Of a stretch of 64,000 nt of DNA, positions 4,758 through 46,092 are shown piece after piece. Numbering within the stretch: the stretch's first letter is position 1; each line of letters starts with the position of its first letter. The notes under the pieces were generated by a model. The model was not told the DNA's origin and searched no databases. It saw only the letters and a program-made list of their open reading frames with translations. The DNA is taken from the NCBI GenBank assembly GCA_026417895.1, contig JAOACJ010000009.1, positions 2,128-66,127 on the forward strand, in the 5' to 3' direction. The DNA comes from Patescibacteria group bacterium. Lineage in GTDB: Bacteria > Patescibacteriota > Patescibacteriia > UBA2591 > CALHIP01. Position numbers and translations under genes: made by a program.

Positions 4758-6134
4758 TTAGCTGATGCGAGATAAATATTTATTGATATAAACATCTTTG
4801 ATTCTTTTCAATTCCTGTCTCGGTAAGATGGCTAAAAGTTGCCAAGCCAAATCTAATGTCTCAAAAATCGTTCGATCTTCGTATAAACCTTGCCTGATAA
4901 ACCGATTTTCAAATTCTTGAGCAAATTTTAAGTATTTTTGGTCTAATTCTGTCAAAGCTGCTTCACCTAAAATAGTTGCCAATTCTCTGGCTTGTTTTCC
5001 CTGGGCATAGGCAGAAAAAAGTTGATTAGAAATGCCTGGATGATCTTCTCTTGTTTTTCCTTCACCAATACCCTTGTCTTTCAATCTTGAAAGTGAGGGT
5101 AAAACATCAACTGGTGGATAAATACCCTTCCGATGAAGTTCGCGAGAAAGAATAATCTGACCTTCGGTAATATAACCAGTTAAGTCAGGAATAGGATGGG
5201 TCTTATCATCTTCTGGCATTGAGAGAATGGGAATCTGGGTGATAGAGCCCTTTTTATTTTTTAAACGACCAGCTCTTTCGTAAAGAGTAGCTAAATCCGA
5301 ATACATATAACCGGGGTAACCGCGTCTGGCTGGGACCTCTTTTCTGGCGGCAGAGATTTCTCGCAATGCTTCACAATAGTGAGTCATATCAATCAAAATA
5401 ACCAAAACATGCATCTCCTTTTCAAAAGCAAAATATTCAGCCGTGGTTAAAGCAATTCTCGGCAAAGTAATTCTTTCAATAACTGGGTCATCAGCCAAGT
5501 TGACAAATAAAACAGCCCTTTCTATCGCCCCGGTTTCTTTGAAATCTTTAATAAAATATTCAGCCTCTTCAAAAGTAATACCCATAGCACCAAAAACAAC
5601 AGCAAATTTCTCTCCGCCTTTAATCAGTTTAGCTTGACGAGCAATTTGTGCTGCAATTTCTAGGTGAGGTAAACCAGCTCCAGAAAAAATCGGCAATTTT
5701 TGACCACGAACCAAAGGATTCATAGCATCAATTGAAGAAATACCGGTTTGAATGAATTCATTAGGATAATCTCTTGCCTCAGGATTAATCGGTGCACCAT
5801 TAATGTCTAACCTCGCTTCAGGAATAATTTTTGGACCACCGTCAATTGGTAAACCGGAACCAGAAAAAATTCGACCCAACATTTCTTCCGCCACATCAAT
5901 TTCCATGGTTTTACCTAAAAATTTTGCTTTTGAGCCTTCGAGAGAAATACCTCTTGTTTCTTCAAACATCTGAATAATGGCTTTGTCTTCATCAACTTCC
6001 AAAACGCGACCGCGTCGAATTTCGCCGTTAGGCAATTCAACCTCAACCAGCTCCTGATAAGTAACTCTTTCTACTCCTTGGACAATTAAAAGTGGTCCGG
6101 CAATTTCTTTGATTGTTTTGTATGACCTAAGCAT
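4758..6134 (-). CDS. atpB: V/A-type ATP synthase subunit B
   Basis: 458 aa, non-catalytic B-subunit motifs (GPLLIVQGV..., PIDGGP). Sits next to the A subunit. Confidence 0.9.
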
Positions 6135-6205
6135 AGAGATAATTTAAATTTAAGAATGGGTATAGATAAATATTTGCTCAAATTTTCTTGCCTCAGTCTT
6201 CTTAA

Positions 6206-7939
6206 TTATAAATTTTCTATTTCATCAATTAAATCTTCGATTTTCTCAAGTTCTTTTTCTGAGATAAATTTTATTTTCGCTATTTTCTCGCGCAGAGGAG
6301 AAGAAGAAATTTCTAAAAATGGCTTTCCTTCAATTAATCTTTTATTGGCTACTTCATGAAAGGTAATAATTGTTTTCAGCATCAGATACTGTTTCTTTAA
6401 AGAAGTATAAGTATCAATCTCGTCAAAAGCATTTTGTTGAAGAAAATCCTCGCGAATTGATTTAGCGGTTAAAAGTGTTAACTGGTCTTTTTCAGATAAT
6501 GATTCAACACCAACCAATCTAACAATTTCTTGAAGCTTCGCTTCTTCTTGTAAAATATCCATCGCCTTTGTCCTTAAAAGAGGAAAATCAGAAGCAATTT
6601 CTTTTTTCAAAAAATCATCAAGATCTTGGGTATAGAGAGAGTAGCTGGTTAACCAATTAAGAGCTGGAAAATGTCTTTGACTAGCTAAATTATCATCAAG
6701 GGCCCAGAAAACTTTGGTGACGCGCAAGGTATTCTGGGTGACTGGTTCAGAAAAATCCCCACCAGGTGGCGAAACGGCGCCAATGATGGCTAAGGAACCA
6801 ATTCTTTCTTCCTTGCCTAAACAGATAACTTCACCGGCCCTTTCATAAAAACCAGCTGTTCTGGAACCTAAATAAGCGGGATAGCCTTCTTCACCCGGCA
6901 TTTCTTCTAAACGACCAGAAACTTCTCTTAAGGCCTCAGCCCAACGAGAAGTTGAATCAGCCATTAAAGCCACTTTATAACCCATATCGCGAAAATATTC
7001 AGCGATGGTAATACCGGTATAAATTGAAGCTTCGCGAGCTGCCACTGGCATATTTGAAGTATTGGCAATTAAAACGGTTCTTTTCATTAAAGGCTCACCC
7101 GATCTTGGATCAAGAAGATGAGGAAATTCTAACAAGACATCAGCCATTTCATTACCTCTTTCACCACAGCCAATAAAAATAATAATTTCGGCATCAGCCC
7201 ATTTGGCTAATTGATGTTGAACAACGGTTTTACCGCTGCCAAATGGTCCAGGCACACAGGCCGTTCCCCCTTTCGCCACCGGGAAAAAAGTGTCAATCAC
7301 TCGCTGGCCGGTCACCAATGGCTCCTTTGGCATTATTCTTGCTTTAACTGGTCTAGCTTGACGAATTGGCCATTCTTGCTTCATTGTTATTTCTCTTATT
7401 CCTTTTTTTGTCTCAATTAAAGCAATAACCTCTTCGACGGTAAATTTTCCTTTTTTAATTTCTTTGATTTTTCCTTTAATGTTTGGTGGAACCATAATCC
7501 GATGTTCAACTAAACTTGTCTCCTGAACGCTACCTAAAATATCTCCGGCCTCAACCTCTTCTCCCTTTTTAACTTTTGGTTGAAAATCCCATTTTTTATT
7601 TCTCTCAAGAGCTGGTAATTCAATGCCTCGACTAATATAGTCACCAAATTCTTCTCGCATTAAATTTAACGGTCTTTGAATACCGTCATAGATTGAGCTA
7701 ATTAAGCCAGGACCGAGTTCGACAGTTAAAGGCTTGCCCTCAAGATAAATTGGTTCACCTGGCCCTAAGCCAGCGGTTTCTTCGTAAACCTGAATTGCCG
7801 CTTCGTCACCTTCGATTTTAATAATTTCGCCAATTAATTTTTTCTCAGAAACTTTGGCTAAATCATACATTTTCACACCAGTCATCTTTTTACCAATGAC
7901 TAATGGACCAGAAATTTTTTTGATAAAACCTTCTTGCAT
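6206..7939 (-). CDS. atpA: V/A-type ATP synthase catalytic subunit A
   Basis: 577 aa with Walker [18 protein letters not shown] and conserved A-subunit regions. Confidence 0.92.
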
Positions 7940-7951
7940 ATTTTTATTATT

Positions 7952-8278
7952 TTATTTTTTATTTTGAAAAAGTATATCACTGCCAACGGCTTTTTCGACA
8001 ATTTTCTTTAACTCTCTTAAACCATATCCGGTGCTACCTAAATGGGTTGGTAAAGAAACGACGGCCGGAATAGTTGATGTTTTTAAAGGCAACAGTTCTT
8101 CTTCCAATTTTTCTTCCCAATCCTCAGTGATAAAAACAATGGCAAAATTATCTTGACTAATTTTTTTGATTGCTTCTTTTCCTTCTTCCAAATTAGTAAT
8201 GGGAAAAATTTCTAAATTAAAAGCTTTGAAACCAAAAATGACATCTTTATGACCAATAATACCAATTTTATATTCCAT
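7952..8278 (-). CDS. atpF: V/A-type ATP synthase subunit F
   Basis: 108 aa, MEYKIGIIGHKDVIFGFKAFNLEIFP matches V-type F. Lies between C and A. Confidence 0.8.
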   Translation of the reverse strand: MEYKIGIIGHKDVIFGFKAFNLEIFPITNLEEGKEAIKKISQDNFAIVFITEDWEEKLEEELLPLKTSTIPAVVSLPTHLGSTGYGLRELKKIVEKAVGSDILFQNKK

Positions 8279-8298
8279 ATTTCTATATTTATTTCTAA

Positions 8299-9288
8299 TT
8301 AATATATTTCTACCCTTTCTTTTAATAAATCCGCTTCGACTTTATTTAATTTACCGCTCATAATTAATCTAACATTTTTGTTGGCATTCTTTTTAGCATA
8401 AAAATAGGCAACCACTACTTCTGGACCATAGGCAATGTATTTTGCTTTTCTTAAATATTCAATCTCTGCTTCAAAAAATCTTTTTTCTAATAACCAGGGT
8501 TTTTTTTCTCTTAAATATTCTAAAAAATACTTGGCTAAAGAAGGGGGGACAATTTTACTAAAATATTCAAGGGCAATTTCTAAATCTTGGTGATAAAAAT
8601 TGATAAAGTCGTCAGTTTTAATTCGGCCGGAGCTAATTAAAGCTTCTTTTAAAAATTCAATCTCCTTTCCTAAATTTTTTAATCGTAAAAAAATTCTCAG
8701 ATTTGTTAAATCAATTTTTAAATTAACAAAGTCAATTAAAAACTGATTTTTAAGTCTTTTGGCTATTTTTTTTAAAAGAGAAAAGTATTCTCGATCAAAG
8801 AAAAATTCTATTTGATAGGGTAATGGCTGTTGATGAAAGAATTGATTAGCTTGAGTAATAAAAGTTTGAATTTCTTCATCAATTTTTATTTTTTCTTCTT
8901 GAAGAATGATTTTTTTTAAAATTGTTGGTTCAAAAAAACCAAAAGGAAGAAGTAAGTAATCTAAATCTTTGTTAAATAATTTTTCTTTGAAAATCACTTT
9001 TAAATTATGGAAGTCGTATTCTAAAAGGAGAAATTTTATCAAGTCTTTGTCAGGAACAATTTGCCATAATAATTTTTTATTCTCCAGTAAATCATCTGAG
9101 ATGACTTGTTCAAATTCTTCCGGCTTTTTTTCAAAAAGATGTTCGGCGTAGTCGGTGTCATAAAAAACCTTGAAGGCTGTTGCTAGATCTGGTGCCCCCA
9201 ACATTCTTTCCAAATCTACTCGATCAAGTAATTTTGTTTCCAGGTATCTAATTTTACCGGTAGCAAAAGTATAATTTGAAATGTTCAT
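8299..9288 (-). CDS. atpC: V/A-type ATP synthase subunit C (d-type)
   Basis: 329 aa, in the C slot between E and F. Length and helical composition fit. Confidence 0.75.
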   Translation of the reverse strand: MNISNYTFATGKIRYLETKLLDRVDLERMLGAPDLATAFKVFYDTDYAEHLFEKKPEEFEQVISDDLLENKKLLWQIVPDKDLIKFLLLEYDFHNLKVIFKEKLFNKDLDYLLLPFGFFEPTILKKIILQEEKIKIDEEIQTFITQANQFFHQQPLPYQIEFFFDREYFSLLKKIAKRLKNQFLIDFVNLKIDLTNLRIFLRLKNLGKEIEFLKEALISSGRIKTDDFINFYHQDLEIALEYFSKIVPPSLAKYFLEYLREKKPWLLEKRFFEAEIEYLRKAKYIAYGPEVVVAYFYAKKNANKNVRLIMSGKLNKVEADLLKERVEIY

Positions 9289-9396
9289 ATAGTTAATTGA
9301 GCAGACAATAAGTTTCTATTTATTTCTATTTATTTCTACAAATTACAGAAATTGATAGAAATATGCTTTGGTGAAATTTATAGAAATTTGTTGTAG

Positions 9397-9981
9397 TTAT
9401 CCAAATAGAATTTTGCTGACTTCTATCTCTGTTTTTTCTCTAATAATTTTGATTAAATTTTCAAAACTATTATCAATCTCTAAGTTTTCAGAAGAGAAGA
9501 TAAAGCCACCCTTTATCGCTAATGATTTTTTAGCAAGATGAAATTTCTTTTTACTTTCGGCAATAGCTTTTTCGGTAACCCTCTCTCTATTTTGAGCCGG
9601 TATAATCTCGCCTCTCTCTGGACATCTTTTCAGTAAATTCAAAATTAACTTCTGATAGTCAGAGTCGCTAAGATTTGATAATTCGTCTAAAACCTCTTGA
9701 TAAATGTTATCTAAAATTTCTTGCTTCTTTTGTAAAAGTAAATTTTTTGTCTCTAAATTAAGACGGATTTGGGTCTGTTGAATTCTCTTTTGCACCTCGG
9801 CTTCCGTTTCGGCCAAAATTTCGCTCTTTCTTTTCTCAATCTCGGCCCGATATTTTTCTTCAAGTTTTCTAACCTCTTCTCTGTTCCTTTCTTCAATTTC
9901 TTTGATTTTTTCTTCTGTTTCTTTTTTAATTTTTTTTAAGATGTCATCTAAAGCCATAGGAAATTTATGGAAATCATCCAA
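9397..9981 (-). CDS. atpE: V/A-type ATP synthase subunit E
   Basis: 194 aa with a charged coiled-coil N-terminus (KKIKKETEEKIKEIEE...). It is in the E position. The true start may be an internal Met because the ORF track also uses TTG/GTG starts. Confidence 0.8.
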   Translation of the reverse strand: MDDFHKFPMALDDILKKIKKETEEKIKEIEERNREEVRKLEEKYRAEIEKRKSEILAETEAEVQKRIQQTQIRLNLETKNLLLQKKQEILDNIYQEVLDELSNLSDSDYQKLILNLLKRCPERGEIIPAQNRERVTEKAIAESKKKFHLAKKSLAIKGGFIFSSENLEIDNSFENLIKIIREKTEIEVSKILFG

Positions 9982-10058
9982 ATAATTCGAGTATATCCAA
10001 ACGCTCCGAATAAAATTATTCGTCGCGTCGAAATAAATTTGTTAATCTCGGGATTATA

Positions 10059-10535
10059 TTAACTCACTTTAATACCGTTAAGCAATAAAATTGTTACTAG
10101 TAAGCCTAAAACGGCATAAGTCTCAACCATAGCCGCCATAATGACTGGCTTACCTGATTCGCCGGGTTTTTTGGCAACGACATGGACGCCAGCGGCAGCA
10201 ACCCTTCCCTGCATAATGGCAGAAATTAAACCAACCACTCCAACCGGCAAACAGGCAAAAAGAATCTGCCAACCAACCTCTAAAGAAATAGTTGGCATCT
10301 GTCCCCCTAAAAGTCCAACTTTTTGTAAAGACATAATGGCGCCCAAAAATCCGTAAATACCTTGAGTACCTGGCAAAGCCTGAAGTAAGAGAACCTTACC
10401 AAATTTTTCTGGGTCTTCTGAAACTAAACCAGCCGCTACTTCGCCAACAATTCTTACCCCTAAAGCTGATCCAATGCCAGCTAAAGCGGCGGCCAAAACT
10501 GCTCCTAAAATGGCTAAAGCTAATCCTAATTCCAT
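10059..10535 (-). CDS. atpK: V/A-type ATP synthase proteolipid subunit K (c-ring)
   Basis: 158 aa, four TM helices, Gly/Ala-rich (MELGLALAILGAVLAAALAGIGSALG), conserved Glu in MVETYAVLG. Confidence 0.88.
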   Translation of the reverse strand: MELGLALAILGAVLAAALAGIGSALGVRIVGEVAAGLVSEDPEKFGKVLLLQALPGTQGIYGFLGAIMSLQKVGLLGGQMPTISLEVGWQILFACLPVGVVGLISAIMQGRVAAAGVHVVAKKPGESGKPVIMAAMVETYAVLGLLVTILLLNGIKVS

Positions 10536-10548
10536 AAGTGTTAAATTA

Positions 10549-12528
10549 TTATTTATAATTGATTAATTGAACATATTTTCCTTCTTTTCTAAACGGCTTA
10601 AACCTGACACCACCTCCTTCCATAAATTTGGGGAAGAACTCAACAAATTGAAGACGAGCCGAATGAATAAAAGCACCCAAGGCATTTATCCCAATATTGA
10701 AAAGATGTCCGCCAATTAAGATAAAGATAGCCAAGATAAAACCAACAAAAGGAATCATTTGGCTGAAAATTTTGGCAATCAGATTGATGACCATACCAAT
10801 AATACTAGTGGCTAATCCCAAAGCTAAAAGTCGAGAGTAAGAAAGTGTATCAGAAAGATAACCAATTAAGCCGTAAAGACTTAAAACGCCAGCCGGAATT
10901 TTTAAGAAAATATTTTTTTGTTTCCGACCTTGAGTCAGGACAACTAAAATAAGACCGATCAAAACTAAATATTTGGCTAAATTGTGAGAAATAGAAAGAA
11001 ATTTACTTTGAGAACCGATAAAGATTAACAACGAACTAATCAAAAATATCCATGGGCCATTATCTAAAATGGCATTCAGGGTGTCTTTATTTTTTATTTT
11101 CCAATACAGATTAATTATTAAGCCAGCCAAAATTTGAAAGACACCTAAAACCAAAGAAATAATTAAAAGCTGTAAAGGATTCTTGATCGGATCAATGATT
11201 CTTATTTGAATCAAAAATTCTTTAACTGGTTTTAAAAATTCTGGCAAAGTTTCCAATTCCAAACCAAACCAACTACCCAAAATGGCACCAATAAAAATAG
11301 TCGTTAGTCCTAACCAAAGGAAAAGTCTAAAAAAATTTTTTGTTTTTTGGGGTAAATTTAAGAACTTAATTATAGTTATCGAGATGATGGTTAAAACTAA
11401 ACCATAGCCAGCATCAGAAAGACAAAGGGCGAAAAAAAGAACAAAAAATGGTGTTAAAAATGGAGTTGGGTCCGGCTCATGATATTTTGGCACCCCATAG
11501 ACATTGGTCACTGTTTCAAAGTCATTAACAAATTCCTTATTTTTTAGAAGAACTGGTACTTCTTCATCTGCCTTGACTGGCATTTCAATGATTTCAAACT
11601 CTGGCGTAATTCTTCTAAGCCCACTTTGAAGATCGGGCAATGAGTCCTTAACAACCCAAGCAAAAAGGAAGAGGGTAAAATTAGTTTTCTGGATTTTTTG
11701 TTTCACTTCTTCTTTTTCTTTTTGCCAAGAAAGCCAATCAAAGATAATTTTTAATTTTTCTTGTTGATTGGCTAAACGAGAAATTTTTCTTCTTACGATT
11801 TTCATTTTTGGCTCTAAAATTGCCAATTCATCTTCTAGGCGTTCAAAATATTGAGCTGGCGAAGATTTAAAAGGTGGTAATTCTATTTTTATAAATTGAT
11901 TTTCTTCTAAAAATTTCAATAAGTCTTTCTCTGTGACTCGATCAAAAATAATCAAACAATAAACATCTTTTTCTAACTGATCAACTTTGATGACCTCAGT
12001 TAATTTAATTTCATTTTTTATTTTCTCTAAAAATTTTGGCCAATTGATCAAAGAAATTTTCCCAGTCAAAAAAGAAAAATTTTTAGTCTTTTTTATCTCC
12101 GCTAAATTTAAATCTAATTTTCGCCAAGGATAAACTTTTTCTTTTTCTTCTTGAATTTTTTTAATTTTAGAAGAAAGAGTGGTAAAATCCATTTCCAATT
12201 TTTCTGTCTCTTGAATAATCATTGCCCACGGTGTTTGAGAAACCGTTTTGTTTAATTCTTGTTTGGTCAGTTTAATTTTTGGTGATAAAAAGGTTGTAAT
12301 TTTTTGCTTTAAACTGACCTTCTCTTTTTTTTGATAGGGTGCTAAAAAATCAATGGCAAATTTTACTCTAGCTAATTGATAGTTTAAATCAATCATCTCT
12401 TTTTCTTCTCTGTGGCCCTCGCCTAAATCAATGATCTCAACGGTGCCAAGTTCCTGTAAAAAACTCAAAATTTCTCGTCGAAATGATTTTGAAGCAACCA
12501 AACAAATTTTTTTTAATTGAGCGACCAT
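10549..12528 (-). CDS. atpI: V/A-type ATP synthase subunit I (a-subunit)
   Basis: 659 aa with a hydrophilic N-terminal half and a multi-TM C-terminal half, in the I slot. Confidence 0.85.
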   Translation of the reverse strand: MVAQLKKICLVASKSFRREILSFLQELGTVEIIDLGEGHREEKEMIDLNYQLARVKFAIDFLAPYQKKEKVSLKQKITTFLSPKIKLTKQELNKTVSQTPWAMIIQETEKLEMDFTTLSSKIKKIQEEKEKVYPWRKLDLNLAEIKKTKNFSFLTGKISLINWPKFLEKIKNEIKLTEVIKVDQLEKDVYCLIIFDRVTEKDLLKFLEENQFIKIELPPFKSSPAQYFERLEDELAILEPKMKIVRRKISRLANQQEKLKIIFDWLSWQKEKEEVKQKIQKTNFTLFLFAWVVKDSLPDLQSGLRRITPEFEIIEMPVKADEEVPVLLKNKEFVNDFETVTNVYGVPKYHEPDPTPFLTPFFVLFFALCLSDAGYGLVLTIISITIIKFLNLPQKTKNFFRLFLWLGLTTIFIGAILGSWFGLELETLPEFLKPVKEFLIQIRIIDPIKNPLQLLIISLVLGVFQILAGLIINLYWKIKNKDTLNAILDNGPWIFLISSLLIFIGSQSKFLSISHNLAKYLVLIGLILVVLTQGRKQKNIFLKIPAGVLSLYGLIGYLSDTLSYSRLLALGLATSIIGMVINLIAKIFSQMIPFVGFILAIFILIGGHLFNIGINALGAFIHSARLQFVEFFPKFMEGGGVRFKPFRKEGKYVQLINYK

Positions 12529-21997: not shown

Positions 21998-22036
21998 AGC
22001 AGAAAAATAAGAGAAGTCTTGAAAAAGACTTCTCTT
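21998..22036 (-). terminator. perfect 12-bp stem / GAAA-loop hairpin followed by a U-run on the minus strand; putative intrinsic terminator or attenuator
   Basis: aagagaagtctt-gaaa-aagacttctctt at 22009-22036, then a minus-strand U-tract from 21998-22008. It lies 3' of the 22060..23487 gene and 15 nt upstream of rsmI. Confidence 0.5.
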
Positions 22037-22059
22037 AAAAATATTTGAATTTCCGATCT

Positions 22060-23487
22060 TTATCTTAGAGAAATAATAACAAACTCTGAACGACCGTTGG
22101 CAAATCTAATCTCTAATTGCCAGGTACCAGTGGAAAGCGATTTTGTTCCAAGATTAAAGATATAAAGGTTATCTAAATTATCATACCGAAACAAATTACC
22201 ACTGTTAGCTGAGCCACTGGAAACTGCTTCTAAAACTGAACCGGAAATATTATTACTAATTTTCAATAAATACAATCTCGCCATTACTGTGCTCACAGAT
22301 TGGTTATTAAAGTCAGTCAAGCGGAATTTTACTGGCACCGTTGAACCTAATTTGAAAATACTACTCCCATCTGCATTGATTGGTTGAAGAATACCGCTAA
22401 AAAGATAACCAACTTCATAAGTAATCGTCTGATAACTTTCCCAGCCAGCCTGATCAACCGCTCTTACTTCAAAATTTTTTAGACCAATAGTTCCGGTTTC
22501 AATCGCTGCACCATTGGGGATTGTCGCTATTACTGAGGCTAAACCAGAAACTTCATCACTAACTGACCAATCAGCCAAAACCGGTTGATTTAACAGATAA
22601 AAACCAGCCGTTGGACTATTAATGGTAATGACTGGTGGTGTTTGATCAATTTTAATCAAAACTGTCTTGACGGTTTCGCTATTACCGGCATTGTCGATTG
22701 AATAGTAATAAAGAGTCGTCACGCCTTCGCTATTAATCATCAATGGCTGAGTATAAGAAAACCAACTGTTTTGATCGAAGCTATATTTCGTCTGAGCAAC
22801 GCCAGAGCCGCCTTCGTTATCAATGGCTGTTAAAGCAACCTCAACCGCAGAAAGATACCAGTTGTTTAAACCTTCATTACCAGTTAAAGTCGCGGTTGTT
22901 GTTGGTGGCAAATTATCAGTCGGTCCAGTCAATTCTTCCGCATCAAGATAAACCCAGGTCGGATTATAAGTATCAATCGTGCCAGCGACATTAAAGCGCA
23001 GCCTAACCATTCGACCTAAATAAGCTGATAAATCAATATTGACTAACTGCCAACCGGTTGTTTTTAAACCAAAACCTGTTCCCCAGGCTCCTTGTGAATA
23101 ATAACGAATTGTTGCCCCGGTTTCTAAATCTTGAACTAAATAACTAAAATGATTAAAACCAGCATAATCATAGGTAAAAATGTTATAAGCAAAGCTTAAG
23201 GTTGGCGCAACAACCAGAAAGTCTTGATAAATAATATTTGGACCAATCGGTTGAAGGCCGGTTGTTCGACCAAGTCGAGCCATATAGGTACCGGCATAGG
23301 GTGTGGTAAAACTATCAGCTGTAACCACGCCAGCAAAATCAACAACTGTTCCTCTTGTCCAGCCAGTGAAATCTCCGGTTTCAAAGCCTCCATTAATTAA
23401 ATTACTCGTCGTCGCTAAAAGAGGCTGTGGGAAAATCGGTATTAAAATAAAAAACGAAAAAATAAGACCAAAAATGACTTTTTTCAT
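22060..23487 (-). CDS. secreted protein with an N-terminal CBM4/9-like carbohydrate-binding module and Ig-like domains
   Basis: Signal peptide, then the NGGFETGDFTGWT start typical of CBM_4_9, then DNAGNSETVKTVLIKIDQTPPVITI Ig-like motifs. GC is higher than in neighbouring genes. Confidence 0.5.
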   Translation of the reverse strand: MKKVIFGLIFSFFILIPIFPQPLLATTSNLINGGFETGDFTGWTRGTVVDFAGVVTADSFTTPYAGTYMARLGRTTGLQPIGPNIIYQDFLVVAPTLSFAYNIFTYDYAGFNHFSYLVQDLETGATIRYYSQGAWGTGFGLKTTGWQLVNIDLSAYLGRMVRLRFNVAGTIDTYNPTWVYLDAEELTGPTDNLPPTTTATLTGNEGLNNWYLSAVEVALTAIDNEGGSGVAQTKYSFDQNSWFSYTQPLMINSEGVTTLYYYSIDNAGNSETVKTVLIKIDQTPPVITINSPTAGFYLLNQPVLADWSVSDEVSGLASVIATIPNGAAIETGTIGLKNFEVRAVDQAGWESYQTITYEVGYLFSGILQPINADGSSIFKLGSTVPVKFRLTDFNNQSVSTVMARLYLLKISNNISGSVLEAVSSGSANSGNLFRYDNLDNLYIFNLGTKSLSTGTWQLEIRFANGRSEFVIISLR

Positions 23488-23522
23488 AGGACAATAAAAA
23501 TTTAAAATTAATTAAAGATATG

Positions 23523-24932
23523 TTACTTTTCTTGCCAACGGGTAGGTGGCAAGCAAGTTGACTTGCCTGATTTCATATAGCCATAAGGTGATTCCTGATA
23601 AGGCGGACAAAGAGGTTCAAGACAGGAAAGAGCCGTCACCCAATAGTGATAATTGACGTTCGCAATAATACTTTTGTCTTCATAAGCACAAAGGCTTTCA
23701 CCACAAACATCCTCGGGTCTAATATTTTCGGCAATTCTTCGACACTGTGATAGTTCACAGTCATTTCTATTGTCTTTATTTTTGACTGCTCGATAAACAT
23801 TATAGCCAACCGCCCCTCCGACTGGTAGCCATTGAACAGTTATTTCACCGCACTTTGAAGAGAGAATTGGCTCCAGAGGCTGTGATGGCGCGCATAAAAC
23901 CGTTGTCCCAGAAGCAGCATCACTGATTATTCCGTCACCGTTTAAATTCCAGGCTTGAACTTGATAGCGATATATCTGTCCACCGCTTAAACCAACATCT
24001 TGCCATTTACATATATCACCACTACAATCAACCTCATTGACAGAAATATTGGCAATAAGGACTCCATTTGTCTGTGGATTACACCCCTCACCCCGACAAC
24101 GATAAATTTTATAACCTTGAGCACACTTAGTTGGTGGTTGCCAATTTAAAAGTAAAGACTGACAATTTTGAGAAACCGATCTGACGGTTAAATTTCTTAC
24201 CTGATCAGGTGGATTTTTTAAACAATAACTTTGATAAGCACCGAGCCAGCCTAAACCAGCACCAGTAATTTGTGGATTATAAGTTGAACTCCAGGCAAAA
24301 CCTGTTAATTCTTTATGATTAAAACCAAAATCTTCTAAAGAAAGACCATAGCTAATACCGCCAGTTGTCTGTCCTCTTAATTTAATCCAGCCATCAGTTG
24401 TTGGTGACGACCAAACTACCTTTGCCCAACCAAAAACTTTTTTGCCTTCCCCAAGACAATTAGTGCCCGAAACATTTTCTCCTTTGCAAGCCCAAGGAGT
24501 AAAATTATCAGGTGAATTAATAAATGAACAAGTCCCACAACCTTCGCAAGTAATATAATTACTACAACTTGGACAATGAGCACACTTACAGGTCTCACCA
24601 AAACAAATCCAGCCAACATTTGGTGACCAACCATAACCAGAAATTTTATTGGTGGAAGAATCTAATTTTAAGCCGTAATTGATATTAGTTGGACAATTAT
24701 TTTCCGGTTGACCATCATTGTTATAGTCGTTATAACAATTCAAAGAAATCCAGCCAATGCCACCCGGATAACTGCCATCACTTCTACTCCAAAGCCAACC
24801 ACGGATGTTATCACTCCTCCCCCCTTGAACTAAATGTGGTTTTTCTATGTGAAAAACAAAAAATAATAAAGCAGCCGCCCCTATGAGACTTAAGATTAAT
24901 ATAAAAACTTGTCGTAACCAAATATTTTTCAT
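23523..24932 (-). CDS. Cys-rich secreted protein with C-terminal fibronectin-III-like domains
   Basis: N-terminal TM/signal segment, many Cys with Trp/Gly motifs (GWICFGETCKCAHCPSCSNYITCEGCGTC), and two FN3-like modules (GYKIYRCRG...YRYQVQAWN; ITVQWLPVGGAVGYNVYRA). Confidence 0.5.
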   Translation of the reverse strand: MKNIWLRQVFILILSLIGAAALLFFVFHIEKPHLVQGGRSDNIRGWLWSRSDGSYPGGIGWISLNCYNDYNNDGQPENNCPTNINYGLKLDSSTNKISGYGWSPNVGWICFGETCKCAHCPSCSNYITCEGCGTCSFINSPDNFTPWACKGENVSGTNCLGEGKKVFGWAKVVWSSPTTDGWIKLRGQTTGGISYGLSLEDFGFNHKELTGFAWSSTYNPQITGAGLGWLGAYQSYCLKNPPDQVRNLTVRSVSQNCQSLLLNWQPPTKCAQGYKIYRCRGEGCNPQTNGVLIANISVNEVDCSGDICKWQDVGLSGGQIYRYQVQAWNLNGDGIISDAASGTTVLCAPSQPLEPILSSKCGEITVQWLPVGGAVGYNVYRAVKNKDNRNDCELSQCRRIAENIRPEDVCGESLCAYEDKSIIANVNYHYWVTALSCLEPLCPPYQESPYGYMKSGKSTCLPPTRWQEK

Positions 24933-25063
24933 TATTTTAATATTATCATTTTTTCATCAATTGTCAATCAAAATTTCAAAATTTCAACTCCTTCACGACA
25001 TTTCAATATTCTCACTAATGCGCCAACATTCTTAAGTGTAATTAATGTTTAAATTCATAATTT

Positions 25064-27946
25064 CTATTCAAAATAAACAAGAGGCATTGGTTCGACATAT
25101 TGACGTAAATAGAGATAATCAACAAAAGTCCGCCAATCCCATGGCCTTGGCCAAGGACAGGTTGCGCACCAACAAGACCACCAGTCAAGAATAAAAATTT
25201 TGCCGGCTTGATTAAAGACTGGTCTGTCTGTTTGACTGAAAGGAAGAACGTCTTTCACCTCAACAGAGTGCTTCGTTTCATAAGCTTTTACCTCCCATAA
25301 AGTCGCCCCTCCTTCCCAAAGAATACCACGACCTAATTCATACCAGGCTCTGCCTTTCATATACCCCCAGGTCGCCAAAGGTACCCCCCACGGCGTCCAA
25401 CCATAAAGCCAATTAGTCGAACCAGAATGAATCTGCCAACTATTTTCTTGATCATCTAAATAACGCCAATAAAGAAAAGTTGAACCATTGGGTCCACCTC
25501 TTGACATTTTTGATTTAAGCCAAAAATTTTTGATTTCTATTTTTGGTTTTAACCAACCAACACTGTTAACACCGATTTGAATTTTTGATTCGCTGGTGAG
25601 CCAATCAACATCATTAAAGTCATAGTCATCCATTCTCATTTGATCAAAATGGTCAAACCAAGTTAAAGTCTTCTCTAAATTTGCCACCGACCCAGCCTGT
25701 TGATTACCATAGTAAAGATAAATCTTTTTCCGAGAATTGGCAGGAATTTCTGGAATTCTGACAACCGCTTCAGCAAAAAGACCATTTTCTTTTTTCGCTA
25801 ATCCTTCATCGTTGATTTCCCAACCATAATTTAATAATGTCTGGCCATCTTCATCAGTAAATCTTAAATCAGAAAAATCCAGCTTCATTTCTGGCTGATA
25901 ATTGATCAAAAGATTAATTTCAAAATTAGTTAAAGTTTCCGAGCTATTGGTATTGTCAATGATAACTGCTTTTCTTTTTTTCCAGTTTTCTAAAAAAGGA
26001 CGAAGAAGATAAGTAATGCAAGATTGAATGGCCGGTTCTTGTTGATTGCCAAGTTTATCTTTGGCTCGAACATAAATTTTGTAATTTCCTTCTTCAATTA
26101 AATCTTTTGGCCAAGCAAATTGCCATTTTTTATTTTCCCAATCAAGAGTAGCTTCAAACCAAAATTCCTCTTTTTGCCAGGAAAATGATGATAATTGAGC
26201 TAAATATTGGCTATCTTTTTCTCTTTGAATAGCTAAAAATATCTTTTCTGTATCCTCGCCCTCAAAAATACCTTCAATTGATGAGGGTAAATTTTCTAAG
26301 CCAACAAAAGTTCCACTTGTCAGAATCGCTGAAGTCGGTGGTGTCAAGTCAATCTGCCAAAGATAAACAAAACTTGCCTGATTGCCGGCTAAATCAAAGG
26401 CTTCTAAAAAGAAACTGTGTTCACCTTCAGAAAGATCATAGTAAATTTTTGGTGATAAACAATCTTCTTTTTCTTTGTCGTCTAACTTACACTTGAAAGT
26501 AACATTTTCATTGGCCGAAAATTCAAAAATGGCATGTCGAGTGTTGGTGGGATTGTTCGGAAAAGCAGTCAGGGTAATTTCCGGCGGTGTGATGTCTGGC
26601 GGTGGTGAAGGAGATCCGCCACCTCCACCAAAATAAACAATGGGTGTAACTTTTTCTTCTTCAATTTTTTCTGTTTCTAACAAATTTTCTTGATTTGTTT
26701 TTTCTAAAAGAGGAGACAAAAGATTCAACTCGCTTAAACTGCCTGGAGCTGGTTCTAAAACAATCTTCTCTTCCGACTTTTCAAAAGCAATTTGCCAAGA
26801 AACCGTTTCTCCTCCTAACCAATGAAAACCTTGACTATCTTGATAAACCGGTCGAAAAGAAAATTGATAAATTTTTGGTTCTAAATTTTTGGCGGTAATA
26901 AAAAATTCAAAAGAACCGATTTCATTTGGTTTGATTTCTGATTCTTTTAGCTTGGCTGGCCTCTTCTTTGTTAACCAACTTGAATGATAAAAATTTTTTG
27001 CTTCTTCGGAAGCAACATTTAAAGAAACAGTTTCTTTTTGCCAAATGGTATTACCGGTATTTTTGAATTTGACGGAAAGAAAAATTTCTTGATTTTCTTT
27101 TAAAGTTAAATTTTGGTTTGGATTTCTCTCAATTAGTTTCGCGTCATAAATTAATTCCTGATTCGTTATTCCTAATTCCTGATTCACTGCTTTTTCCTGT
27201 TCTCCTGATTGACTTTCTTGATTTAAACCTAATAAGTTATTAATTAAAGAAGTAATCCCTTGCCACCAGCCGGTCAGAAGTGAACCGAGATTTTGCCAAA
27301 AATTACTTGAAGATTCGGGTTGAGATGACGGTTGCTGAGATAATTGTTCCTCTGCTAATCTCGTTTGGAAAATTTCATTATCCGAAAGATACCAATTGCC
27401 AGCGACAAAGTTGGTATAGCCCGACATTGGTTCTGGCTTATAAGCAATGAGTTTCCCGTCTGGCTGTCGCTGATACATAGCAAAATGAAGATGGGTACCA
27501 GGGTATTCTGGACAGGCAGAGCCACTAACTTCACCACTTCTACCAATCTTACCAATAATTGTTCCTTGTCTAACGTCCTGATTTTGTGCGACTCCTATGG
27601 AATAAGGAATTAGATGAGCATAACGACTAATTAAGTTATTACCATGATTGATTAATACAGTTGTTCCATATCCACCATTATAACCATCTTGGAGTACTAA
27701 TATCACCTTTCCGTCAACTACTGTTAAAACATTTTTTCCGTAAGCTTCGCATCCATTTTTAGTGAAATCTAAAGCGTATTGATCTTTACTGTTGGGTGCA
27801 TGGGTTGGTAACGTATTATATCCTCGCGTAATAATAAATCTTTCTCCTTTCTGATAAGGAAGTTTAAAAATTAAATCTGCAGCTAAAACAGAACTGACTG
27901 ATAGAATGGATAAAAATAAATAAGTGAAAATTTTTTGTTTTGACAT
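25064..27946 (-). CDS. large secreted multidomain protein: N-terminal M23 (LytM) peptidase, Ig-like repeats and a C-terminal DUF2341-like domain
   Basis: M23 motifs (GTTVLINHGNNLISRYAHL; GTHLHFAMYQ); Ig-like DLAGNQASFVYLWQIDLTPPTS; DUF2341-like DFSDLRFTDEDGQTLLNYGWEI. The likely start is MSKQKIFTYLF... at 27946, followed by a signal peptide. Confidence 0.65.
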   Translation of the reverse strand: MSKQKIFTYLFLSILSVSSVLAADLIFKLPYQKGERFIITRGYNTLPTHAPNSKDQYALDFTKNGCEAYGKNVLTVVDGKVILVLQDGYNGGYGTTVLINHGNNLISRYAHLIPYSIGVAQNQDVRQGTIIGKIGRSGEVSGSACPEYPGTHLHFAMYQRQPDGKLIAYKPEPMSGYTNFVAGNWYLSDNEIFQTRLAEEQLSQQPSSQPESSSNFWQNLGSLLTGWWQGITSLINNLLGLNQESQSGEQEKAVNQELGITNQELIYDAKLIERNPNQNLTLKENQEIFLSVKFKNTGNTIWQKETVSLNVASEEAKNFYHSSWLTKKRPAKLKESEIKPNEIGSFEFFITAKNLEPKIYQFSFRPVYQDSQGFHWLGGETVSWQIAFEKSEEKIVLEPAPGSLSELNLLSPLLEKTNQENLLETEKIEEEKVTPIVYFGGGGGSPSPPPDITPPEITLTAFPNNPTNTRHAIFEFSANENVTFKCKLDDKEKEDCLSPKIYYDLSEGEHSFFLEAFDLAGNQASFVYLWQIDLTPPTSAILTSGTFVGLENLPSSIEGIFEGEDTEKIFLAIQREKDSQYLAQLSSFSWQKEEFWFEATLDWENKKWQFAWPKDLIEEGNYKIYVRAKDKLGNQQEPAIQSCITYLLRPFLENWKKRKAVIIDNTNSSETLTNFEINLLINYQPEMKLDFSDLRFTDEDGQTLLNYGWEINDEGLAKKENGLFAEAVVRIPEIPANSRKKIYLYYGNQQAGSVANLEKTLTWFDHFDQMRMDDYDFNDVDWLTSESKIQIGVNSVGWLKPKIEIKNFWLKSKMSRGGPNGSTFLYWRYLDDQENSWQIHSGSTNWLYGWTPWGVPLATWGYMKGRAWYELGRGILWEGGATLWEVKAYETKHSVEVKDVLPFSQTDRPVFNQAGKIFILDWWSCWCATCPWPRPWDWRTFVDYLYLRQYVEPMPLVYFE

Positions 27947-27956
27947 GCTATTATTA

Positions 27957-28547
27957 TTAAAACTTAATTGATGACAGATATAAATCAAAATCCTTCAAAC
28001 ACCTCTCTTTATCCTCCCCTTTGGGATAAAGAATAAGTTCGTATATTTTCTGTCTCAAAGGAACTATAACCGCTATAGAATACCCCGTTTCATTCGTATC
28101 CAACACTCTTTTAATACCTCTTTGTCCGTCAATATTAACCTCTACGCGTTCATCCAAATTAATTGTCAAAAATGATTCATTAAGTTTTACCTCTTCACGA
28201 TTCAACCACTGCTCAGCTGTAAGTTTCTGTGGGTTATCAATTATGTATGTCTCTATTTTACAATATTCATCTTTTGGATTATCCCAATCGATATCGTTGA
28301 AGCTAAGATAGCCAGCACTTGGTCGTTCAACGTTCCACCCCTTCGACACAGTCACCTCATAACCCTCTGTCTTATTTCTTATAATTTTCCCCTCTTTTGT
28401 TTCAATAACCTCAATGCCGGCAGGTGCAGTTGTTTCAGGCGACGGTTTTTCCGTGGTATAAATAAAAAGGGCGGTACCAGCCACAAGACACGCCAAAATA
28501 ATAAAAATAATAATGCCTAAATTTTTTGGTTCTTTTTGCCAAAACAT
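27957..28547 (-). CDS. hypothetical membrane-anchored protein
   Basis: 196 aa with a single N-terminal TM helix and no recognised domain. Co-directional with, and just upstream of, the M23 gene. Confidence 0.45.
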   Translation of the reverse strand: MFWQKEPKNLGIIIFIILACLVAGTALFIYTTEKPSPETTAPAGIEVIETKEGKIIRNKTEGYEVTVSKGWNVERPSAGYLSFNDIDWDNPKDEYCKIETYIIDNPQKLTAEQWLNREEVKLNESFLTINLDERVEVNIDGQRGIKRVLDTNETGYSIAVIVPLRQKIYELILYPKGEDKERCLKDFDLYLSSIKF

Positions 28548-32637: not shown

Positions 32638-33741
32638 TTATAATTCTTGAGTTTTTTTAGAAATATTCACCAAGATACCAAAAGCGGCTAAATTGGCTAT
32701 TAAAGCGCTGCCACCATAACTAATTAAAGGTAAGGGAACACCAGTTAAAGGTAAAAGTTTGAGCATTGCCCCAATATTGATAAAAGTTTGAAAGCCAAAC
32801 CAAGAAACAATGCCAACCCCGACTAATCGAGAAAAGAGATCGGGGGCATTTTTAGCAATTTTTAAACCACGCCAGATTAAAAGAAAAAACAAGACAACCA
32901 CTAAACTAGTCAAAACAAACCCCAACTCTTCAGCCATCACGGCAAAAATAGAATCACCAAAAACTTCTGGCAGGTAGAAAAATTTCTGACCAGAACGGCC
33001 AAGTCCCCGGCCAAACAAACCACCAGAACCAATGGCAATTAGAGCTTGTTGAAGATGATAAGAGATTCCTTGTGGCTCAAGACCAGGAGAAATAAAGGTT
33101 AAAAGTCGGTTTTTGAGATAGGGAAAGAATTTAAGAAAAAGAGGTGAAAAGATAGCTAACAAGCAAAAAACGAGAAATAAATAAATCAAATTAGCACCAG
33201 CAACAAAATAGATTGAGAGAGAAATTAAGAGGACAATCATTAAACCACTAAAATTGGGTTGTTTAATAATTAAAAAAGAAATAAGGCCCAAGATAAAAAT
33301 AAATGGTAAGAAGGTAGAAGAAAAATTTTTAATTGTCGCCTCTTTTTTCTCAAAAAAGTAAGCCAAAAATAAAATGAGGCTTAATTTTAAAACTTCGATT
33401 GGCTGAAAAGAAAAGACTCTCAAATTAAGCCAACGATGAGCTTGGCCCTTAATACCTAAGCCAGGAATAAAAACAGCCAGAAGAAGCACAATGGAAAAAA
33501 TAAGTGAAAGGAGGCTCAATTTTCGCCAGAATTGATAACGAATTAAAGCAAAAATAAAGAAAAATAATAGGCCTGGCAAAAGGCCGTAAAAAATCTGGTG
33601 TTTTAAATAATAATCTGGATCTTGGAAGTTTTTATAACCCATGACCCAACTGGCTGAGGCTAAAAAAATTAGACCAATGATTAAAAGAATAAAAATTAAA
33701 ACGATTAAAAAATAATCTGGCGCATGAGGTGTTTTTTTCAT
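32638..33741 (-). CDS. ftsW: peptidoglycan glycosyltransferase FtsW (SEDS family)
   Basis: Ten-TM SEDS protein between murD and murG. Confidence 0.8.
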   Translation of the reverse strand: MKKTPHAPDYFLIVLIFILLIIGLIFLASASWVMGYKNFQDPDYYLKHQIFYGLLPGLLFFFIFALIRYQFWRKLSLLSLIFSIVLLLAVFIPGLGIKGQAHRWLNLRVFSFQPIEVLKLSLILFLAYFFEKKEATIKNFSSTFLPFIFILGLISFLIIKQPNFSGLMIVLLISLSIYFVAGANLIYLFLVFCLLAIFSPLFLKFFPYLKNRLLTFISPGLEPQGISYHLQQALIAIGSGGLFGRGLGRSGQKFFYLPEVFGDSIFAVMAEELGFVLTSLVVVLFFLLIWRGLKIAKNAPDLFSRLVGVGIVSWFGFQTFINIGAMLKLLPLTGVPLPLISYGGSALIANLAAFGILVNISKKTQEL

Positions 33742-44103: not shown

Positions 44104-45231
44104 TTATACCCTGCCTTCTTTTTTTGTCAATGTTTGATGAATAATTGCACTCTGAACAAGACCAAGGGAAAGACAATTCATTATTAAAGCACTCCCCCCA
44201 TAACTAATAAAGGGCAAGGGAATACCAATAATTGGTAAAAGACCCAAGTTCATGCTGACATTAATGATAGCCTGAATCAAAATATTAAACGCTAAACCAA
44301 GAATAAGAAAAAAACTAAAATCATCATAAATATTTCTTGCCACCTTAATCATTTTTAAAAAAAACGTTAAAAATAAAACAAGGAGGGAGCCTGCCCCCAA
44401 AAAACCAAACTCTTCAGCCAAGGCGGCAAAAATAAAATCTGTCTGACTGGCTGGTAAAAATCTTAATTGGGCCTGAGAACCAGCACCAATCCCTCGACCA
44501 AAAAGACCGCCAGCACCAATGGCAATTTTGGCTTGAGCAATTTGGTAGCCCCGACCTAACGGATCTGAGGTTGGAGAAAGAAAAGTTATAATTCTTGCTT
44601 TCTGATAATCTTTAAAAAGAAAATGCCAGAAAAAAAGGAAAATTAAAAAGAGAATCAGAAAAATATAGCCTAGATATTTAATTTTCTTAAGGTTCAAAAT
44701 CATCATTAATAACCAAACGGCACAGATGACCAAGGCTGAACCAAAGTCTGGTTGAAGTAAAATAGGAAAAACAAGAGAGAATAAAATCACAAAACTGAAG
44801 AATAAGTCTTTCAACCTCAGTCCTTTTTTTAATTTTTCAGATAAAATTTTCGCTAAAACAATAATTAAGACAATTTTTGCCAATTCCACTGGTTGAAAAT
44901 AAACCGGACCGAAAAAAAACCAACCCTTAACGCCGTGAAAACTTTTTCCGAAAATTAAAACTAAAATCAAGAGAAGAAGTGTTAAAAAATAAAGTAAATA
45001 GGCAGAAAAGTTGAGAAGTCGGAAATCAATCAAACTAAAAAGAAAAAAAAGAAAGAGACCGAAAAGAATAAAAATCAGATGTCTAATAAAAATACTGGCG
45101 GCGTTTTTTTCTAAACCTAAAGAAAGGCTATAATGAATAACCAAGCTGAAAATTAAAATCAGAACAAATAAAAAAAATATTGTCCAGTCAAATGATTTAA
45201 ACTTTCTGATTAGGGCGGTGAAAATTGACAT
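44104..45231 (-). CDS. rodA: SEDS-family peptidoglycan polymerase, RodA-like
   Basis: Second SEDS paralogue in the window. It lies outside the dcw cluster, so RodA is the more likely call. Confidence 0.7.
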   Translation of the reverse strand: MSIFTALIRKFKSFDWTIFFLFVLILIFSLVIHYSLSLGLEKNAASIFIRHLIFILFGLFLFFLFSLIDFRLLNFSAYLLYFLTLLLLILVLIFGKSFHGVKGWFFFGPVYFQPVELAKIVLIIVLAKILSEKLKKGLRLKDLFFSFVILFSLVFPILLQPDFGSALVICAVWLLMMILNLKKIKYLGYIFLILFLIFLFFWHFLFKDYQKARIITFLSPTSDPLGRGYQIAQAKIAIGAGGLFGRGIGAGSQAQLRFLPASQTDFIFAALAEEFGFLGAGSLLVLFLTFFLKMIKVARNIYDDFSFFLILGLAFNILIQAIINVSMNLGLLPIIGIPLPFISYGGSALIMNCLSLGLVQSAIIHQTLTKKEGRV

Positions 45232-45234
45232 ATT

Positions 45235-46092
45235 TTAATCTTTTTTTTGTTGAAAGATCGAACTCATAAAAGAGAGAGGATCGAAAACGTTAATTTCAGG
45301 TAAAACTTTTATCTCTGAAACAAAGGAAAAGGACGATGGCCAAATAATTTTTACTTCTCTTTCTTCTTGGCTAAAAATTTCTTTAAGATTTGTTCGTTCG
45401 ATAGCCACAATTTCTTGTCCTTGATAAAGTAAGACAATTAAATTAATTTGCCAAAAATTATAAATGGTCGAATTAATAAACTGAAAAGTAGTAACATCTC
45501 TTTCTTCTTCTCCTTGGGCGGGTAGATATTTAAGATTTTTAATCAAAAATTGTTTTGGAACTTCTAAAAGATATTTTTTTTCTTGACGAAGACGTTGCCA
45601 CTCAATTTCTTCAATTTGACAAGTCAAATTAAGTGGCGGTTCGTTAATTTGATGATTAAAAATGATTAAAAATTTTTCTTCGTTTGGTAAAAGAAACTTT
45701 GTCATTGAAGGTGACTCGCCCTTGGACCAAATAAAATGATATTTCAACGAACGAGCATACCAATTTTGATTGGGATTTTTAACTAAACAAATCAAATGAT
45801 ATCTACCACGACCAAGAGGAATGGCTTTACTATAAATAATTTCTGGCATTAAAGGGGTAATACTTTTATGAAGTTTTTCATAGTTGATGTTGACTAACCG
45901 CCCTAATTCTTTTTCCATTTCTTGATACTCTTTACTTTGAATAAGATAAAGAGTAAAATGATAGAAAAAATAGAACCAAATGAGAAGATCAATGATTATG
46001 AAGGTGGCAAAAAATATCTTTTTCAGCAATCTCTTTTTGGTGATTAAAAAATGAGCAATTCTCAATTTTTTAAGAGTTATCTCTTCGTCCAT
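45235..46092 (-). CDS. hypothetical membrane-anchored protein
   Basis: 285 aa, one N-terminal TM helix, no recognised domain. Co-directional with rodA. Confidence 0.45.
   Translation of the reverse strand: MDEEITLKKLRIAHFLITKKRLLKKIFFATFIIIDLLIWFYFFYHFTLYLIQSKEYQEMEKELGRLVNINYEKLHKSITPLMPEIIYSKAIPLGRGRYHLICLVKNPNQNWYARSLKYHFIWSKGESPSMTKFLLPNEEKFLIIFNHQINEPPLNLTCQIEEIEWQRLRQEKKYLLEVPKQFLIKNLKYLPAQGEEERDVTTFQFINSTIYNFWQINLIVLLYQGQEIVAIERTNLKEIFSQEEREVKIIWPSSFSFVSEIKVLPEINVFDPLSFMSSIFQQKKD

Follow-up and report, generated by a model that had tools for sequence, protein, structure and literature searches.

Do four neighbouring genes for exported proteins in a Patescibacteria genome form a single apparatus, or have separate systems come to lie side by side? 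The question is raised by positions 22060–28547 of a contig of the NCBI metagenome-assembled “Patescibacteria group bacterium”, of which a stretch of 64,000 nucleotides (nt), here called the window, was analysed. Four successive minus-strand open reading frames (ORFs), transcribed in the order D, C, B, A, fill this block, confirming the four co-directional genes described in an initial annotation, which had seen in them a cell-surface attack or attachment toolkit, for example one that remodels a host cell wall. The best explanation of the comparisons reported here is that the block is a juxtaposition and not one system: the adjacency of D and C is kept from locus to locus and A and B are absent from the other loci that hold the pair, so that the conserved unit is D plus C, a small membrane protein and a giant secreted protein with a peptidase domain of the M23 family. 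This strict adjacency, and the predicted PsbP fold of the partner D, appear to be previously undescribed, and no description of the D–C pair, or of the N-terminal domain of B, was found by full-text searches of the literature. The four genes are:

27957–28547, minus strand: gene D, 196 amino acids (aa), bitopic membrane protein (ORF)
25064–27946, minus strand: gene C, 960 aa, secreted multidomain M23 metallopeptidase (ORF, Pfam, NCBIfam)
23523–24932, minus strand: gene B, 469 aa, signal-anchored Cys-rich surface protein (ORF, Pfam)
22060–23487, minus strand: gene A, 475 aa, secreted modular surface protein (ORF, NCBIfam)

Each of the four proteins has one cluster of hydrophobic 19-mers, N-terminal in every case, in agreement with the signal or transmembrane (TM) N-termini that had been assigned to them. 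The N-termini of A (…PLLA/TTS) and C (…SVLA/ADL) resemble cleavable Sec signals, and those of B and D resemble N-in signal anchors. Domain searches, proposed earlier as a check on the toolkit, brought to light no unrelated intracellular functions, all four products being predicted extracytoplasmic.

The pairing of D and C was counted over about 30 retrieved loci, each with a single D–C pair, a D-like protein being one with a membrane helix followed by a domain of the PsbP/DcrB fold. At the loci of three C homologues (L001, L003 and L004), the gene directly upstream encodes 187–215 aa, has no Pfam match and is alignable with D, and at the loci of four D homologues (L009, L011, L012 and L013) an M23 protein of 828–1158 aa begins 1–5 nt after the D-like gene. 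An independent scan of GTDB species representatives, made with the alignment of C, yielded 26 Patescibacteria loci, and the upstream gene was testable in 24 of these. In 17 of them a match to the hidden Markov model (HMM) of D (E <= 1e-3) is found directly upstream, in the same orientation. The remaining seven have a same-strand upstream ORF of roughly 200–290 aa, which in six begins with a TM helix and carries the strand motif GY.h.hP..W, and in four gives a weak D-HMM score (E 0.001–0.01). The gap from D to C is 1–10 nt in most loci, and the pair-bearing loci carry the submitter labels Paceibacteria/Parcubacteria, Moranii-, Falkow-, Uhr- and Saccharibacteria. Searches starting from D added little: a D-profile scan of GTDB genomes gave 189 pattern matches, none of them confirmed, the two back-translated peptide patterns being too narrow, and a scan of metagenome contigs gave three loci, two of which were already known.

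The genes around the pair change from locus to locus, with V-ATPase genes on one side and EamA and hydrogenase genes on the other in L001, FtsW directly downstream in L003, and GT2/GT4 genes beside it in L004. EamA follows C in the close relatives L001 and L011, and in one subclade a GAPDH gene lies 1.6–4.4 kb downstream of the pair. No secretion genes are annotated alongside D and C in the seven loci with gene calls, the other loci having been compared with genes of the window. HMMs for the N-terminal domains of A and B found no match in the 62 other loci scanned, and no A match was seen in L064–L066, which were compared by blastx only. On these sequence comparisons, B and A adjoin D–C only in the present lineage.

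The predicted enzyme of the pair, C, is identical (100%) to an NCBI protein of 960 aa (P0037) with the same ATG start at 27946. This start lies 10 nt past the stop codon of D; were translation to begin at the alternative TTG (27988), C would overlap D. The M23 domain reported earlier is confirmed by Pfam (Peptidase_M23, PF01551, residues 69–160, 61.2 bits against a cut-off of 28.7, E 1.1e-16). Named M23 enzymes in NCBIfam are matched only partially, and the sequence matches in the PDB are Neisseria M23 proteins, ShyA, DipM and zoocin A. Four regions can be distinguished in the protein:

27362–27865, minus strand: M23 catalytic domain, C residues 28–195 (Pfam, PDB matches, conservation)
26747–27121, minus strand: NBR1-like (N_BRCA1_IG) Ig-type domain, C residues 276–400 (PF16158, precomputed on homologues)
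25967–26551, minus strand: two Big_13/Big_3_3-type Ig-like domains, C residues 466–660, after a Gly/Pro linker (Pfam Big_13, 5.4e-7; weak Big_3_3)
25067–25966, minus strand: DUF2341 and Trp-rich C-terminal region, C residues 661–960, a variable module (Pfam DUF2341, 6.2e-14)

Residues H49, D55, D60, H111, H152 and H154 are invariant in a 17-sequence family alignment, and the HxH motif (H152-L-H154) together with the catalytic H111 is also present in 61–63 of 68–69 aligned family members. Because these catalytic residues are invariant, C is predicted to be enzymatically active, and it looks like an active peptidoglycan peptidase of the M23 family. The Pfam alignment begins only at profile position 12; at the first zinc-ligand motif (N-terminal HxxxD) the relatives mostly have H-x3-D, and C, through a two-residue insertion, has H-x5-D55 or H-x10-D60. 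A pair of cysteines (Cys66/Cys145) is conserved in most family members. Domain-wise comparison gives a conserved family core of the M23 domain, the NBR1-like domain (31–69% identity across homologues) and the two Ig domains, the Big_13 region being conserved in P0038–P0041. The C-terminal module differs among homologues, with DUF2341 in C and LTD, beta-helix or other modules in relatives, and residues 661–960 are matched only in P0040/L003 and L009. At loci where GAPDH is 35–48% identical, the M23 domain is 47–56% identical; its being more conserved than GAPDH points to strong purifying selection.

C resembles characterised M23 peptidases (LytM, lysostaphin, ShyA/MepM, DipM and zoocin A) in being predicted extracytoplasmic and in having the HxH motif, His111 and candidate upstream His/Asp ligands. 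It differs in the insertion in the first motif, the second invariant Asp60 and the Cys66/Cys145 pair, and in its architecture, with the catalytic domain at the extreme N-terminus and NBR1-like, Ig-like and DUF2341 modules making up some 760 residues after it. LysM, SH3b and coiled-coil regions are absent, and a dedicated partner gene lies upstream in every locus examined.

In that partner, D, an N-in TM helix spans roughly residues 10–32, and a further domain is predicted, by the positive-inside rule, to lie outside the cell. Residues 40–72 form a conserved beta-hairpin segment (P.GIEVIE..KIVRN..EGYEVTVPKEW). Profile searching assembled a family of 21 proteins of 148–217 aa. D has no match in Pfam or NCBIfam (E <= 0.1), PHROG or PADLOC, and the family profile has none among PDB sequences at E <= 1. 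An AlphaFold2 (AF2) monomer model built from a 20-sequence alignment (pLDDT 83, pTM 0.71) places an antiparallel sheet packed by helices after the TM helix. Foldseek matches this model best to PsbP (E 2e-6, probability 1.0, query/target template-modelling scores (TM-scores) 0.45/0.54–0.58), and further to Apa, DcrB, LpqN, the type VI secretion system (T6SS) chaperones SciW/EagT6, and Tsi3 (E 1.8e-3). With target-normalised TM-scores of 0.5–0.64 to PsbP/Mog1/DcrB/LpqN-like proteins, the ectodomain is modelled as having the PsbP/DcrB fold. The match is one of fold only, and membership of a curated sequence family (Pfam PsbP, DcrB, DUF1795) was considered and rejected. Many proteins of this fold are extracytoplasmic protein-binding modules of the envelope; D differs from them in its N-terminal TM helix, the extra conserved beta-hairpin and the linkage to an M23 gene.

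Within the pair the D ectodomain and the C-terminal modules of C diverge fast, and the resemblances of its parts point to different relatives. Identities to the window proteins are:

D N-terminal part: 57–61% to L001; 33–45% to L009/L016
D ectodomain: 24–27% to L001; 59–60% to L009/L016
M23 domain of C: 65–67% to L001; 67–72% to L009/L016
NBR1 domain of C: 68–69% to L001; 31–36% to L009/L016

The N-terminus of D and the NBR1/Ig domains of C therefore resemble the L001 lineage, and the D ectodomain the L009/L016 lineage, the M23 domain being about as close to one as to the other. This mosaic suggests recombination inside the D–C pair, with a tract covering at least the D ectodomain.

What might such a pair do? 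The reading that we favour, with a probability of roughly 45%, is that D tethers or gates C at the surface of the producing cell for controlled cleavage of its own peptidoglycan. C would be exported by Sec, with its intact zinc endopeptidase domain (M23, LytM-type) immediately following the signal peptide, and its NBR1-like, Ig-like and lineage-variable terminal modules may place it on the wall or a surface polymer. D, anchored in the producer membrane with its PsbP/DcrB-fold protein-binding domain outside, would bind the conserved M23 end of C, keeping an enzyme that lacks any other anchor at the surface of the producing cell and gating its activity, and cross-links in the peptidoglycan of the own wall would then be cut under control during growth or division. 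For this reading we infer a physical interaction between D and C, its direction (with D as tether, activator or inhibitor) and the own wall as substrate. There is precedent for a dedicated membrane partner that localises or gates a hydrolase, in FtsEX with EnvC, PcsB, CwlO or RipC, ActH–LytH, SpdC–SagB and NlpI–MepS, which D–C would resemble; the single-pass PsbP/DcrB-fold D is unrelated to the ABC-transporter-like FtsEX, the rhomboid-like ActH, the CAAX-like SpdC and the tetratricopeptide-repeat lipoprotein NlpI. An M23 domain and a partner that both remain constant point to a substrate that is likewise constant, for which the own wall is the best fit. The hosts of the phylum include bacteria of differing wall chemistry and archaea that are wall-less or have pseudomurein; with hosts spanning Actinobacteria to archaea, conservation of the M23 domain speaks against host walls as the substrate, and the suggested remodelling of a host cell wall is not favoured. 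Wall-building genes near D–C in the window and in L003 were also counted for the own wall. Conserved synteny of D–C with cell-division genes was considered and set aside as too weak beyond a hint, being seen in the window and L003 only. Co-variation is on the side of a D–C link: over 16 loci the two halves of D vary in step with the M23 domain (rho 0.62 and 0.58), more closely than M23 does with the adjacent NBR1 domain (0.33), a hint at most, since phylogeny and physical linkage on the DNA enter into the comparisons. The wider claim that D and C constitute an unrecognised, Patescibacteria-wide two-component wall-hydrolase system, with a single-pass PsbP-fold protein controlling a giant secreted M23 endopeptidase, is put forward tentatively.

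Several observations weigh against this reading. Adjoining wall-synthesis genes are found in only 2 of the about 30 loci. C lacks an anchor of its own, and its large, adhesin-like modules, which vary by lineage, are of a kind that secreted attack enzymes also carry. Tsi3, which confers immunity to a peptidoglycan muramidase, is among the proteins with the PsbP fold. Compared with a relative that has a 92% identical V-ATPase B subunit, D shows only 36% identity, and its fast, mosaic evolution resembles that of arms-race or immunity genes. In the main rival explanation, C is a secreted effector that cuts cross-links in the wall of a host or prey cell at attachment, its variable C-terminal modules recognising the host surface, and D is a membrane-anchored immunity protein that blocks the M23 site near the producer's wall. 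Such a role would agree with a signal peptide without an anchor, with the adhesin-like modules, with the rapid divergence and mosaicism of D, and with a fold common to Tsi3 and Eag chaperones; tight gene pairing is typical of effector–immunity modules, D being a small co-oriented gene 10 nt upstream, with its domain predicted in the compartment that the enzyme targets and its adjacency conserved, and in the window the pair adjoins two genes for adhesin-like surface proteins. Bd3460 protects Bdellovibrio from its own DD-endopeptidases, and Tsi3 neutralises Tse3; Tse3–Tsi3 and Bd3459–Bd3460 are, like D–C, a hydrolase gene with a small adjacent gene whose product lies where the enzyme could harm its producer. 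The literature contains general statements that Patescibacteria carry M23 and other wall hydrolases presumed to act on hosts, and leads one to expect a self-protection partner (PMC8080830, PMC9530719), the Bdellovibrio precedent being cited for Patescibacteria wall hydrolases (PMC8080830). The effector reading is nevertheless considered less likely than the tether or gate: across classes, conservation of the catalytic domain exceeds that of GAPDH; each locus examined has a single pair, with a D-like gene beside M23 in every one, through several labelled candidate phyla, unlike the patchy, polymorphic and often multi-copy distribution of effector–immunity modules; no T6SS or other delivery system is linked in the loci with gene calls; no relatives occur on viral contigs or in defence models; and the Tsi3 match of D is much weaker than that to PsbP.

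An improbable third possibility is that C needs D only transiently, for example in folding its disulfide-containing M23 domain after Sec export, with no regulation involved. The PsbP-fold relatives SciW and EagT6 are chaperones, the cysteine pair in the M23 domain is conserved, and D and C look translationally coupled; set against this, Eag chaperones are cytoplasmic and act on transmembrane helices, the D domain is predicted extracellular, and M23 enzymes in general need, to our knowledge, no dedicated chaperone. A similarly slim chance is left to the reading with which this analysis began, that D, C, B and A are one operon whose products act jointly in attachment and lysis. It can draw on the co-directional genes with gaps of 10 nt (D–C), 131 nt (C–B) and 35 nt (B–A), on a single strong terminator 3′ of A with no terminator-like site detected in the 131-nt C–B gap, and on the predicted export of all four products; the apparently active M23 domain and the adhesion-type modules of the proposed toolkit also stand. 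Only D and C travel together, however: among the 62 loci scanned by HMM none combines D–C with the N-domain of A or B, and EamA takes the place after C in the two close relatives named above. The closest homologue of B (38–51% identity) lies directly before rsmI, itself 67% identical to the rsmI of the window, with no A between them and an upstream fragment that is not C-like, and B-like genes elsewhere are found in pilus operons. Within the C–B gap there is, moreover, a match to a promoter consensus:

24940–24967, minus strand: sigma70-like site TTGACA-16 nt-TAATAT, 7 nt 5′ of the B start (consensus match only)

This candidate internal promoter suggests two transcription units, D–C and B–A, of which the second probably has its own promoter, shared by B and A, and ends at the terminator. 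The toolkit reading is contradicted by the synteny data.

If B is not part of the D–C unit, where does it belong? Sequence comparison places B in a Patescibacteria family linked to type IV pili, with members in pilus operons of three other lineages. The B-like genes of L014 and L065 directly precede a run of pilM, three small genes, pilB, pilT and pilC, and that of L066 follows a pilin, PilD and minor pilins and precedes the gene of an 832-aa PKD protein. The latter (L066 10692–13190) holds a second B-type N-domain (blastx to B residues 42–230, E 2e-12), and this domain can therefore occur in two adjacent proteins of a pilus cluster. Common to the family are an anchor at the N-terminus, the N-domain and, at the extreme C-terminus, an LPxW(K/R/Q)E motif, with FN3, PKD, Ig and LamG modules interchanged in between. 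The two mapped regions of B are:

24237–24815, minus strand: B N-domain, residues 40–232, with paired GWxWS...GWIxL / YGLxL...GxxWS...GWIxF hairpin-like repeats (family alignment)
23553–24203, minus strand: two fibronectin type III domains, residues 244–460, the variable middle of the family (Pfam fn3, Foldseek)

The description of B as a Cys-rich FN3 protein holds, with 28 cysteines and a Pfam fn3 match at residues 244–340 (26.7 bits against a cut-off of 25). A Cys-rich insert occupies residues 113–160 of the N-domain, which has a weak internal duplication (E 0.003) and no Pfam or PDB match, the profiles of relatives matching only in their PKD/Ig parts. The AF2 model of B is of low overall confidence (mean pLDDT 65.5), with 10-residue block means of 38 to 88 in the N-domain, lowest at residues 132–161, and Foldseek matches tandem FN3 structures only, none of them to the N-domain. 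B ends in ...CLPPTRWQEK, and the motif LPxW(K/R/Q)E(I/V)xP stands at the extreme C-terminus (window 23523–23560) in nearly all family members, with a hydrophobic tail after it in three. It may serve in sorting or processing, or form a strand docking back on the N-domain.

The window B itself lies outside a pilus cluster, the nearest pilus genes (PilD and pilin-like ORFs) being at 57.5–63.8 kb, 33 kb away. This minus-strand accessory cluster (57569–63812) has PilD at 63003–63812, followed by three ORFs with pilin-type N-termini, GFTFIEMMVV (62509–63000), GFTLVETIVA (61993–62508) and SFTLVEMLTS (61430–62002), then a 220-aa ORF, a 470-aa secreted protein and a 554-aa Cys-rich protein, none of the last three with Pfam matches. 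The 470-aa protein (59264–60676) is 30% identical over 199 aa to a protein adjoining the B-like gene in L065.

The last gene of the block, A, is by its sequence an ordinary and common modular surface protein of the PxKF/OmpL47 type, and NCBI names it a PxKF domain-containing protein. Its parts are:

22933–23406, minus strand: jelly-roll-like N-domain, residues 28–185, after the signal peptide (weak similarity to carbohydrate-binding modules (CBMs))
22648–22857, minus strand: OmpL47-type barrel, residues 211–280 (NCBIfam, 73.9 bits against 40)
after the barrel in order, minus strand: Ig-like domain
22063–22398, minus strand: PxKF domain, residues 364–475 (NCBIfam, 59.6 bits against 35)

As in other OmpL47/PxKF surface proteins, both NCBIfam models score above cut-off in A and PxKF is C-terminal, although A falls below the full-length Leptospira OmpL47 equivalog (51.9 bits against 250) and its N-terminal jelly-roll is common to only a subset of relatives, such as P0145 at 53% identity. 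A representative library contains 25,422 relatives, mostly found through repeats in giant surface proteins and some of them outside the phylum. The earlier label “CBM-like” has weak similarity behind it: the N-domain profile matches the CBM61 structure 2xom (E 2.4e-4) over 40 residues only, and some relatives match SGBP_B_XBD (4.7e-4), CBM_4_9 (0.019) or MAM, all below threshold; no CBM model scores above threshold, and the N-domain sequence of A itself has no Pfam match even at E <= 10. A jelly-roll/CBM fold class is plausible, and any sugar binding is conjectural. The domains of A, like the M23 and FN3 domains, are ordinary; the B-type N-domain at pilus operons appears undescribed.

On both sides the block is bracketed as reported before, by genes that Pfam identifies as RsmI (TP_methylase), MetG, CvpA and GyrB downstream, and an M16 peptidase, dodecin, GlyRS, MurG, FtsW and MurD, followed by MraY, upstream; MurG, FtsW, MurD and MraY are on the same strand, 3 kb upstream of the block. 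The hairpin said to close the block proves real:

22008–22037, minus strand: intrinsic terminator 3′ of A, perfect 13-bp stem, UUUC loop on the transcript, then UUAUUUUUCU (folding and sequence)

With four GC pairs in the stem and the U-tract UUAUUUUUCU on the transcribed strand, it has the features of a rho-independent terminator, and its RNA fold (−18.4 kcal/mol, z = −4.2) is equalled in stability by 0 of 200 shuffles; the GNRA (GAAA) loop described earlier is the plus-strand reading. A TATAAT-like box lies beyond it, 12 nt before the rsmI ATG.

The higher GC content ascribed to the four genes is a marginal excess (A 0.387, B 0.394, C 0.362 and D 0.365, against 0.348 ± 0.035 for genes of the window). 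GC at third codon positions (GC3) is not raised (0.26–0.33, close to the 0.23–0.29 of the neighbours), which makes amino-acid composition the likeliest source of the small excess. A horizontally acquired island was considered and rejected, GC3 not being raised, D–C occurring in several labelled Patescibacteria candidate phyla and no mobile-element genes being seen. Rejected likewise was a phage or defence origin: PHROGs gave only generic M23 matches for C and none for A or D, PADLOC gave none, and no relatives of C were found on viral contigs.

Some further features of the window lie outside the block. A complete V/A-type ATPase operon (4041–12528, minus strand; subunits I, K, E, C, A, B and D) encodes subunits 64–92% identical to those adjoining D–C in the closest relative L001 (1–6753), where EamA, DUF6390 and NiFe-hydrogenase genes follow D–C in place of B and A. 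There are two FtsW/RodA-family (SEDS) paralogues, at 32638–33741 and 44104–45231, one within the mraY-murD-ftsW-murG cluster and the second followed by a 285-aa ORF (45235–46092) without Pfam matches. A secreted 491-aa protein (56070–57545, plus strand) carries a Por_Secre_tail domain of type IX secretion sorting above cut-off (E 1e-8), and L014, also from Patescibacteria, encodes two SdrD_B plus Por_Secre_tail proteins (1–1612 and 4542–6410); neither an outer membrane nor type IX secretion is known from Patescibacteria.

Much of bacterial diversity belongs to the Patescibacteria, and almost nothing is known of how they build their walls, divide and use the interface with their hosts. In D–C these questions gain a concrete handle, a strictly paired unit with an enzyme half as constrained as a core metabolic enzyme. 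Type IV pili drive host attachment in cultured Saccharibacteria; the link of the B family to pilus operons points to an unannotated pilus component, and its N-domain would be a new surface module associated with type IV pili in the phylum. The comparisons also caution that adjacent exported-protein genes in such genomes are not to be presumed one system. If the present reading is true, D–C could be the regulated wall-cutting enzyme of the phylum, and C may be what chiefly makes space or separates cells in these reduced organisms; on the alternative, the pair could be a conserved host-wall effector with its antidote, and C the opener of the host wall at the attachment site. The pair would accordingly represent a new hydrolase–regulator class or a new immunity fold, and either outcome adds a new partner fold to the ways in which bacteria restrain their wall hydrolases.

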